This document shows, piece after piece, positions 7,165 to 8,613 of a DNA stretch of 51,184 nucleotides (its first letter is position 1; each line of letters begins with the position of its first letter). Source of the DNA: a virus (taxonomy: Duplodnaviria > Heunggongvirae > Uroviricota > Caudoviricetes). The notes below the pieces were generated by a model. That model ran no database searches and was not told where the DNA came from. It saw only the letters and a program-made list of their open reading frames with translations. The position numbers and the translations under genes are program-made. The DNA is taken from IMG/VR virus record IMGVR_UViG_2585427745_000020; one strand, written 5' to 3'.

Positions 7165-7764
7165 GTGATTGAGATAGGCGTTATGGCCATCCTGAATCAA
7201 GAGCCAGGAAAAATTGAAAACGTTTTTTCTGACATATCAACATCTATCGAGCGTTCAATTTCAGACTTTGATCGCAGTCATAGCGGCTCTTTGTCTAAAA
7301 AACAGGCTTCTGAAGCTCTTAGCAAGATCTACTGCGTTATGTCACCTGTAGAGGAAGTTTGCAAAAAGTACATTACATTCATTGACATATTAAGTAATGG
7401 TACGGAAGAAGATATTTCCTCACTTGATATTCAACATGACGATGTAGATATGTTGAACGATCAAATATCTAAGCTTGATTATGGTATCGCGAAACTGTTG
7501 TATACCTTCTTCATCGCTGAGAACAGCGATGCGTGGAAGCCCCATATGTCAACTCTTACAACAATGAAAAACCACTCAATAAATACTTTTATAGAATACA
7601 AAAGGCTAACTATGGGGCTTGTGACGCTAGCAATGCAGCACATACCACTATCATATGCTGAACCTGAAGAGTTCACTGAAGAAGAGTTGGCTTCATTCAA
7701 GAAATCAGTTGAAGATTCACATAAAAGATTTGGCATGGAAGCACCAAAATGGAAAACCGCATAA
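7165..7764 (+). CDS. Hypothetical protein, first gene of the AT-rich cassette
   Basis: 199 aa; GTG start (ATG at 7183 is an alternative); no recognised motif; overlaps the next gene by 16 nt. Confidence 0.5.
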   Translation: MIEIGVMAILNQEPGKIENVFSDISTSIERSISDFDRSHSGSLSKKQASEALSKIYCVMSPVEEVCKKYITFIDILSNGTEEDISSLDIQHDDVDMLNDQISKLDYGIAKLLYTFFIAENSDAWKPHMSTLTTMKNHSINTFIEYKRLTMGLVTLAMQHIPLSYAEPEEFTEEELASFKKSVEDSHKRFGMEAPKWKTA

Positions 7765-8168
7765 GCATTGTTGTAGATGCAGCGGCTGGACCATTAGAAC
7801 AATACTTTGCGAAGGCTCTTGCAAACTACAAAAACAGAGGCACCGTTTCAGCTTATCTTGGTAAGATTGGTGGGTTTGAGAGAAACCATCACGCCGTCTT
7901 ATCGGGAATTTACAAGTCGCACATCAGGATCCCTGGAGTAGATGATCCTTGGTTAAAAACAACGCCAATACATCGTAGAGTTAGCGATAACTTTTTGATA
8001 TTTGCGGTACACAACACATATCCAATTCATATCCAGATCATTGCTATCATTAAACCTGATGGTCATGAGAAGGTAAAAAAACTATTGCCAGCCATCATTG
8101 ATATAACTGAAAAAAGATTCCAATCTCTAAATGAGAGGGAGCTTAACTCGTTGATTTCATACAAATAA
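7749..8168 (+). CDS. Putative YafO-family toxin-like protein
   Basis: 139 aa; segments FERNHHAVL and IIAIIKPDGHEK resemble remembered YafO motifs (FERVAHIHL, LIAILKPEPHK); recalled from memory, not searched. Confidence 0.5.
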   Translation: MENRISIVVDAAAGPLEQYFAKALANYKNRGTVSAYLGKIGGFERNHHAVLSGIYKSHIRIPGVDDPWLKTTPIHRRVSDNFLIFAVHNTYPIHIQIIAIIKPDGHEKVKKLLPAIIDITEKRFQSLNERELNSLISYK

Positions 8169-8190
8169 AATATCAACTAAGGAGGTTGGT

Positions 8191-8613
8191 GTGTTTGGTA
8201 TATTAACGAGAAGCAAGATAAAAAAATTAAGGGCAGAACTCGCCGAAACACAAAAACTGGCTTCACATTTTTACAAAATGAAATACGACGCTGAAGAGCG
8301 TGCATTTGTTGAGTTATGCGATTTATCTATTCGTATGGGAGTAGAGCCAGATGTAGCGGCAAAAACCCAACAAGGCATTGATATACTTGCAGATGTTGTT
8401 TTAAACAGGCAATATGCGTTTTATCTAAACGAGAAGGCCATTCAGATTTACTCTCAAATCTTCCTCCTAGAAAAAAGAAGAGGAACTCACGATCGAGAAG
8501 AGTGGTTAAATGAAGTTGTTAAAAAATCTGGCTGGGAAGTTGTTTCATCAGAGCTACCTCTTATTTGTGCTGATTTAATCGAAGAGGCAAAAGAGCGCCT
8601 ATCCGATGGCTAA
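8191..8613 (+). CDS. Hypothetical protein, third gene of the cassette
   Basis: 140 aa; GTG start preceded by strong RBS AAGGAGG (8179-8185); convergent with the late operon. Confidence 0.5.
   Translation: MFGILTRSKIKKLRAELAETQKLASHFYKMKYDAEERAFVELCDLSIRMGVEPDVAAKTQQGIDILADVVLNRQYAFYLNEKAIQIYSQIFLLEKRRGTHDREEWLNEVVKKSGWEVVSSELPLICADLIEEAKERLSDG

Follow-up and report, generated by a model that had tools for sequence, protein, structure and literature searches.

Our analysis concerns three co-oriented genes in a 51,184-nucleotide (nt) stretch of DNA from a virus of the class Caudoviricetes (IMG/VR record IMGVR_UViG_2585427745_000020), the whole of which is called the window here. The first two genes, which lie after the repressor gene mnt, probably constitute a toxin–antitoxin pair in which gene 1 serves as the antitoxin of gene 2, a protein of the YafO toxin family. 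Gene 3 is a separate orphan that would be co-transcribed with them only through its position. An earlier note on this DNA had described three open reading frames (ORFs) of 199, 139 and 140 amino acids (aa), with a 16-nt overlap between genes 1 and 2 and a 22-nt gap before gene 3 that holds a strong ribosome-binding site (RBS). These coordinates match the ORF list exactly: the overlap is 7749–7764, the gap is 8169–8190, and the RBS is AAGGAGG at 8179–8185, 5 nt before the GTG of gene 3. The features of the three genes are the following:

7165–7764, plus strand: gene 1 (199 aa, GTG start), an acidic all-helical protein of phrog_18235 and the proposed antitoxin, from family searches and the AlphaFold2 (AF2) model
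7749–8168, plus strand: gene 2 (139 aa, ATG start), a basic YafO-family toxin (PF13957, phrog_1651), from the Pfam match
7749–7764, plus strand: the overlap of genes 1 and 2, in which the toxin ATG is made from the codon before Trp196 and the TG of the Trp codon
7645–7761, plus strand: residues 161–199 of gene 1, comprising an acidic linker, a helix and the Trp-containing tail SHKRFGMEAPKW, a proposed toxin-binding element, from the model and from covariation
8191–8613, plus strand: gene 3 (140 aa, GTG start), a soluble helical orphan and independent moron beside gene 16, from its distribution and the AF2 model

Gene 2 matched the Pfam profile YafO_toxin (PF13957) with 45.1 bits (gathering cutoff 25; E=1.1e-11; profile positions 2–98 of 101), and its homologues reached 51–59 bits. 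The RefSeq product name of its copies is “type II toxin-antitoxin system YafO family toxin”. Residues H58, R77, D80, H106 and E121 are invariant in the family alignment, which includes K-12 YafO, and the protein is basic (isoelectric point (pI) 9.6, net charge +6). Gene 2 is 19% identical to K-12 YafO (BLASTP) and fell below the NCBIfam equivalog for that protein (PRK09885; 14.2 bits versus a cutoff of 153); by sequence, it belongs to a distant YafO subfamily and is not the K-12 YafO orthologue. The family PF_YafO is listed among the mRNases of the BECR fold (RelE/ParE superfamily), with the order antitoxin then toxin (PMC11980606). YafO has been reported to bind the 50S subunit and to cut mRNA 11–13 nt downstream of the start codon (PMC7781912), and its dependence on the ribosome has since been questioned (PMC8546651). 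Membership in this family suggests that gene 2 would be toxic through mRNA cleavage.

Gene 1 belongs only to phrog_18235, which has no assigned function. A word-indexed search of 5.8 billion proteins returned 16 relatives and an exhaustive profile search of 1.84 billion cluster representatives returned 18, which are 162–218 aa long apart from a few fragments. Gene 1 had no Pfam or NCBIfam match at E≤1, and the Phd/YefM antitoxin family was not matched. Scans of genomes and viruses with the most divergent gene 1 relatives gave no matches, while one metagenome scan yielded an additional locus, L033. The AF2 model (predicted local distance difference test score (pLDDT) 79.5) has seven helices; it had no Foldseek match at E<0.1 in PDB or BFVD, where only generic helical-bundle and coiled-coil matches appeared, and the family profile matched only designed helical proteins among PDB sequences. 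The protein is acidic, with a pI of 4.9 and a net charge of −12. The gene order, the overlap, the size and the opposite charges of the two proteins (−12 versus +6) would fit a type II pair. PtuB, an HNH-type nuclease with beta strands, was considered as an identity for gene 1, since its PADLOC model gave 14.5 bits (E=0.005). We judged this weak match spurious because the all-helical AF2 model is unlike the beta-containing PtuB.

In every locus examined, genes 1 and 2 stay paired, and they travel jointly among unrelated contexts. Their DNA is 98.5% identical to that of phage CUS-3, in which both are annotated as hypothetical and hkcB takes the third position. The pair was found in 72 of 5426 complete E. 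coli genomes (approximately 1.3%), always on the chromosome, and the K1 and extraintestinal pathogenic E. coli strains that carry it include UTI89, IHE3034, RS218, APEC O18 and NU14. Without gene 3, the pair follows mnt both in a viral contig and in a P22-like prophage of Salmonella. In several genomes of Pectobacterium it stands alone, as an islet of two genes flanked by an ABC-transporter operon and gcvP, and in Xenorhabdus it occupies two different sites among housekeeping genes, one from slt/trpR to ABC-F and the other from prfC to rimI/holD. The pair of L033, a metagenomic prophage contig (27%/40% identity), lies directly after a cI-type helix-turn-helix (HTH)/S24 repressor and likewise has no gene 3. 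The same holds for the Flyfo siphovirus Tbat2_3 (L035), where the pair lies between the tape-measure gene and other tail genes and the upstream protein matched the gene 1 profile with an hhalign probability of 98.2%. Copies from E. coli to Xenorhabdus keep the overlap at 16 nt, and that of L033 is 10 nt. The family was absent from 72,556 plasmids.

Module insertions were also observed in the tail and baseplate clusters of unrelated phages. In L017, L019 and L020 (approximately 3900–4910), the insertion lies between a 355-aa ORF, taken as a baseplate gene, and a gpV-like gene, as read from ORF translations. In L035 (1873–2863), it is flanked by the tape-measure gene and the distal tail genes. 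Such sites are classic for morons and are remote from any repressor.

All three genes are real genes under purifying selection, not chance ORFs. Compared with the Salmonella, Pectobacterium and Xenorhabdus copies, genes 1 and 2 have synonymous differences per site (pS) of 0.73–0.94, which are saturated, and nonsynonymous differences per site (pN) of 0.14–0.25. The ratio of nonsynonymous to synonymous substitution rates (dN/dS) of gene 3 is approximately 0.06.

The C-terminus of gene 1 varies with the partner protein. In the model, pLDDT falls to 58 at the acidic linker (residues 161–170), which is followed by a helix (172–188) and a short tail. The family divides by its C-terminus into two types. 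Type A, the type of the window, has the tail F..S...SHxRxGxExPxW and is followed by a YafO-family protein in every locus. Type B has the tail PxWVxSGxDFVKWI and is followed by a phrog_5954 protein of approximately 125 aa in six of six loci (L007 and L017–L021). The type-B proteins match phrog_18235 over residues 17–165 only, that is, over the bundle and not the tail. Locus L021 encodes a 126-aa protein with an unrelated N-terminus and the type-B tail only, and this protein is followed by the same phrog_5954 partner. Since the tail type tracks the partner type and L021 shares the tail alone, the tail is the likely toxin-binding element. The simplest reading of these sequences is that the last 40 or so residues bind one specific toxin, with the bundle serving as an exchangeable scaffold.

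The phrog_5954 partner (L007, 2065–2457; L017, 4534–4908; L018, 4042–4422; L019 and L020, 4534–4911; L021, 4104–4490) carries the motif LPGRNKPSTGVSK...LWHYHIG...FGDWTS...YQ...PHPPFKLP and had no Pfam, PDB or PADLOC match. It is presumably an undescribed toxin. Its HxH and PxxH motifs, noticed by eye, raised the idea of a divergent YafO, which was dropped in view of hhalign probabilities of 0.3% and 0.1%.

Our proposal for genes 1 and 2 is a type II toxin–antitoxin-like pair that is self-contained and horizontally mobile. Gene 1 would be translated first and be coupled to gene 2 via the 16-nt overlap. Gene 2, as a YafO-family endoribonuclease, would cut mRNA and halt translation. Gene 1 would consist of a helical bundle of approximately 160 residues, the acidic linker, and a C-terminal helix with a Trp tail that blocks the toxin; the covariation of tail and partner and the opposite charges suggest that gene 1 neutralises gene 2 by binding through this tail. 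The pair would be made in the lysogen, as expected from its seat beside prophage repressor genes (mnt here and cI elsewhere). Its most likely role would be that of an abortive-infection or prophage-retention device in the lysogen, because the toxin would be set free once antitoxin is no longer replenished. Measurable protection by the pair against other phages is plausible, although we rate it as less likely than not. We think it unlikely that the gene 1 bundle senses phage infection, seated on a plug-in adaptor with a short tail that is exchangeable along with unrelated toxins of the YafO or phrog_5954 type; the family would then be a small prophage-borne modular platform for abortive infection, expressed alongside the repressor, rather than an ordinary addiction pair.

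A Pmnt-like promoter was predicted at 6818–6846. No terminator was predicted between 7122 and 7165, from mnt to gene 1, so that read-through from Pmnt is possible. Such read-through would not be required, since the pair seems to carry its own conserved −10 box:

7139–7156, plus strand: candidate module promoter and RBS, with the extended −10 TGaTATAAA (7139–7147) and AAGG (7153–7156), from sequence match only

All aligned contexts have a −10-like box before gene 1, and its spacing to the gene 1 start is constant. It reads TGnTATAAA in the mnt-linked type-A loci and TGcTATAAT in the type-B locus L007, and the counterparts are TTGCTG-17-TAGAAT in Pectobacterium and TTGCGT-17-TAAAAT in Xenorhabdus. 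This suggests that the pair brings its own promoter, which is probably constitutive. With such a promoter, transcription would start near the AAGG, and an alternative start of gene 1, the invariant Met7 at 7183, might be the one actually used. A 24-nt near-palindrome, AATAACAAGGTATACATTGTGATT, at 7147–7170 spans the Shine-Dalgarno sequence and the GTG of gene 1; it might serve as an operator, or as a hairpin in the RNA by which the gene 1 start is masked. The operator is not part of our proposal, since the palindrome is not conserved in the Salmonella copy.

The position of the pair argues for expression in the lysogen, as for sieA, since the gene immediately before it is repeatedly a lysogeny repressor, namely mnt in the window, L007, L008 and L016, and cI/S24 in L018, L021 and L033. 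In P22, late transcription towards gene 9 runs antisense through the region between mnt and gene 16. Antisense transcription of this kind could switch the module off during the phage's own lytic growth.

Several observations weigh against a toxin–antitoxin pair with a role in defence. No defence model of PADLOC-DB 2.0.0 credibly matches gene 1 or gene 2; gene 2, gene 3 and the distant relatives gave no matches there at all. Pfam detected no HTH, ribbon-helix-helix, AbrB or Phd domain in 17 members of the gene 1 family, so that classical autoregulation is not evident; a DNA-binding antitoxin domain is a common but not universal trait of type II systems. Gene 1 is approximately twice the size of YafN. 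The failure of gene 2 at the K-12 YafO equivalog implies that its specificity may differ. The absence of the family from plasmids argues against a classical history of plasmid addiction and is mute on defence. Finally, the conservation of the K–W tail in type-A proteins is partly forced at the DNA level, because the toxin ATG takes its TG from the Trp codon: the toxin start lies within AAATGG or GTATGG in the window, in Pectobacterium, in Xenorhabdus and in L033, whose copy is 27% identical. However, type-B proteins, too, have an invariant Trp, and there the genes do not overlap at this place.

An addiction module that is purely selfish, stabilising itself or the prophage with no protection against other phages, would account for the solitary gene pairs among the housekeeping genes of Pectobacterium and Xenorhabdus and for the lack of a PADLOC match, and no anti-phage role for K-12 yafNO is reported in PMC8546651 or PMC7781912. 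We nevertheless regard this explanation as unlikely, although it is the strongest of the rivals, since most contexts of the pair are prophages and it recurs after a lysogeny repressor or at moron positions in tail operons, which are typical of prophage-expressed exclusion genes such as sieA. The zero count on plasmids points in the same direction.

It is also conceivable that gene 1, instead of being a stoichiometric antitoxin, works as an enzyme or sensor through which gene 2 is modified or activated, or that gene 2 is a non-toxic RNase that the phage uses in lytic growth, for example in host shut-off. The large size of gene 1, its lack of a known antitoxin fold or DNA-binding domain, and its strongly conserved polar motifs ERSxSDFDRSH (residues 29–39) and AWxPH (residues 123–127), which simple tail binding would not need, speak for a role of this kind. 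However, ERSxSDFDRSH is absent from more distant family members that are still paired with YafO, and the tail-only protein of L021 keeps its partner. The module is oriented opposite to the late operon and is not part of the early operons, and it has the gene order, the overlap and the charges of a type II pair. We therefore consider these alternatives improbable.

The earlier note had taken the three genes as one cassette and had offered a toxin–antitoxin-like module as one of its candidate functions. The latter idea is supported for genes 1 and 2, with gene 2 as a YafO-family protein and gene 1 as its invariable upstream partner. The single cassette is not supported, since other prophages carry gene 3 but lack genes 1 and 2, CUS-3 has hkcB in its stead, and neither the Salmonella nor the chromosomal copies of the pair include it. 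The relatives of gene 3 fall into three clusters, all from E. coli. It had no Pfam, NCBIfam, PHROG or PADLOC family and no tblastn match in 50,697 phage records. Its AF2 model is helical (pLDDT 70.8) and gave only generic helical-bundle and coiled-coil matches to PDB, at E>0.1. In the E. coli P22-like prophages L025–L032, gene 3 (95% identity) adjoins gene 16 without genes 1 and 2, and upstream of it there is a P63C-domain gene, or mnt with a ClpP-like gene and P63C.

The third slot is joined to the preceding DNA at one short sequence:

8175–8193, plus strand: mosaic joint AACTAAGGAGGTTGGTGTG, with the third slot's RBS and start codon, from alignment

Wherever gene 3 occurs, these 19 nt precede it, and they likewise stand before hkcB of CUS-3 and before a membrane ORF of 41 aa that the Salmonella copies have at this place. 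Outside the window, the joint lies at approximately 4321–4339 of L001, 6648–6666 of L008 and approximately 4985–5003 of L025. By alignment, gene 3, hkcB and the 41-aa membrane ORF are alternative alleles joined at one 19-nt sequence, which looks like a recombination joint for the exchange of cargo beside gene 16. That all three genes form one functional system, with a toxin, an antitoxin and a third regulator or chaperone, is very improbable and already largely refuted by distribution: the co-orientation, the 22-nt spacing, the absence of a predicted terminator between genes 2 and 3, the similar G+C content and the full trio of E. coli MS14385 are in its favour, but that trio is found in one of the 5426 E. 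coli genomes versus 72 with the pair, gene 3 stands beside gene 16 behind P63C or ClpP-like genes, other alleles replace it at the joint, and the pairs of Pectobacterium, Xenorhabdus, L033 and L035 lack it. A promoter-like site was also seen at 8143–8171.

With regard to the cargo of L025–L032, the P63C-domain protein has 322 aa and is encoded on the opposite strand, and in some of these prophages a 178-aa ClpP-like protease lies directly after mnt. This prophage-encoded ClpP homologue beside the repressor might merit separate attention.

The slot that holds the three genes is bounded by the following neighbours:

6874–7122, plus strand: mnt (Arc/Mnt-family repressor, 82 aa), an ORF upstream of and outside the module
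8638–10746, minus strand: gene 16 (ejection protein), an ORF that forms the convergent right-hand boundary of the slot

The mnt DNA is 86–90% identical to mnt of P22, epsilon34 and UPF_BP1, and the CUS-3 homologue of gene 16 is annotated as a DNA transfer protein. The surroundings are a P22-like immI region, with arc, ant and the tailspike gene further left on the other strand. The interval from mnt to gene 16 in P22 contains orf59a, the mnt terminator t_mnt, P_sieA and sieA. The slot is thus the sieA slot of P22, in the same orientation, as the earlier note had placed it. Its expectation that the locus is variable was borne out by comparison: at least five cargo sets were seen, and sieA is carried by only 22 of 66 P22-like phages (PMC10883804). 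That 2024 study of SieA mentions CUS-3 only as a phage without sieA.

The G+C content is 38.3% in gene 1, 39.3% in gene 2 and 38.8% in gene 3, versus 47.3% in the window. The AT-richness that had been noticed relative to the flanking core genes is real (38–39% versus 45–49% G+C for genes 16 and 20, with gp16 at 48.6% and gp20 at 45.3%). This bias is modest next to the neighbouring immI genes: mnt has 42.6%, and mnt and ant lie at 42–43%. The maximal 19-residue Kyte-Doolittle means are 0.82, 1.52 and 0.75 for genes 1, 2 and 3, versus 2.07 for the N-terminus of hkcB. None of the three genes therefore contains a hydrophobic segment of membrane strength, in agreement with the view that none is SieA-like.

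Some further features of the locus were observed. An 89-aa ORF at 6359–6628 (minus strand) between arc and ant has a hydrophobic N-terminal helix, LQFLSGAIIVVCLLVIFTSLI; it is annotated as hypothetical in MS14385, and versions of 63–73 aa occur in the P22-like prophages L008 (4902–5093) and L025 (3202–3423). P22 (L034) has the sar RNA region where the window has this ORF, which may be another small membrane moron inside the arc–ant operon. In CUS-3 (L001), two tandem mnt genes (2739–3268) are annotated upstream of the pair, whereas the window has a divergent arc and a single mnt. A hairpin, AATCCA-tccg-TGGATT, lies at 8617–8632 between the convergent stops of gene 3 and gene 16 and was not called by the terminator scan.

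Our study proposes a concrete function for two “hypothetical” genes of CUS-3 and related prophages. Gene 2 adds a new and distant member to a known toxin family, and automated annotation has already named it; gene 1 is new as a family, and the antitoxin role proposed for it is also new. It would add a new antitoxin family to the small YafO toxin family. We found no paper in the literature that links YafO-family genes to P22-like phages or describes the gene 1 family, and the paper on yafNO of avian pathogenic E. coli showed no sign of concerning the prophage pair. The two tail types, the two partner types and the one tail-only protein constitute a natural experiment that points to the likely site of toxin recognition. 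Furthermore, the interval between mnt and gene 16 of P22-like phages is documented here as a hotspot of cargo, and its apparent recombination joint is defined at 19 nt. Should the pair shield lysogens from other phages, P22-like phages would have in it a functional alternative to SieA in the slot of sieA itself.

Four known systems can be compared with the pair. The first is YafN–YafO of the E. coli K-12 dinB-yafN-yafO-yafP operon. As in that system, the toxin belongs to PF13957, the antitoxin gene lies upstream with a short overlap or abutment, and the action is presumably mRNA cleavage that inhibits translation. In contrast, gene 2 shares only 19% identity with K-12 YafO and fails its equivalog, and gene 1 is a 199-aa helical protein that is not of the YafN or Phd/YefM type. 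YafN–YafO sits in an SOS operon, whereas the gene 1–gene 2 pair is found on prophages and small islets. The second is SieA of P22, which is encoded in the same slot between mnt and gene 16, in the same orientation and likewise in a P22-like prophage. SieA is a polytopic inner-membrane protein whose gene lies between genes 16 and 9, while genes 1–3 have neither a membrane segment nor similarity to SieA.

The third comparison is with the modular, partner-swapping antitoxins of the NetFlax network, such as those of the Panacea (PanA) type. Exchange of antitoxins between toxin families is a known theme, as outlined for NetFlax (PMC10440598). In the gene 1 family, one antitoxin scaffold likewise occurs with unrelated presumed toxins, and its short specificity element changes along with the toxin. 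In contrast, gene 1 has no sequence or fold relation to DUF4065/PanA or to Pfam antitoxin domains, and its family is very small, with two partner types so far. The fourth is RexAB of phage lambda. The rexAB genes lie downstream of cI and cause abortive infection. The pair described here shares with them the position directly after a lysogeny repressor gene, which suggests expression in the lysogen; however, there is no homology, and a soluble toxin of an RNase family would act here in place of a membrane channel.

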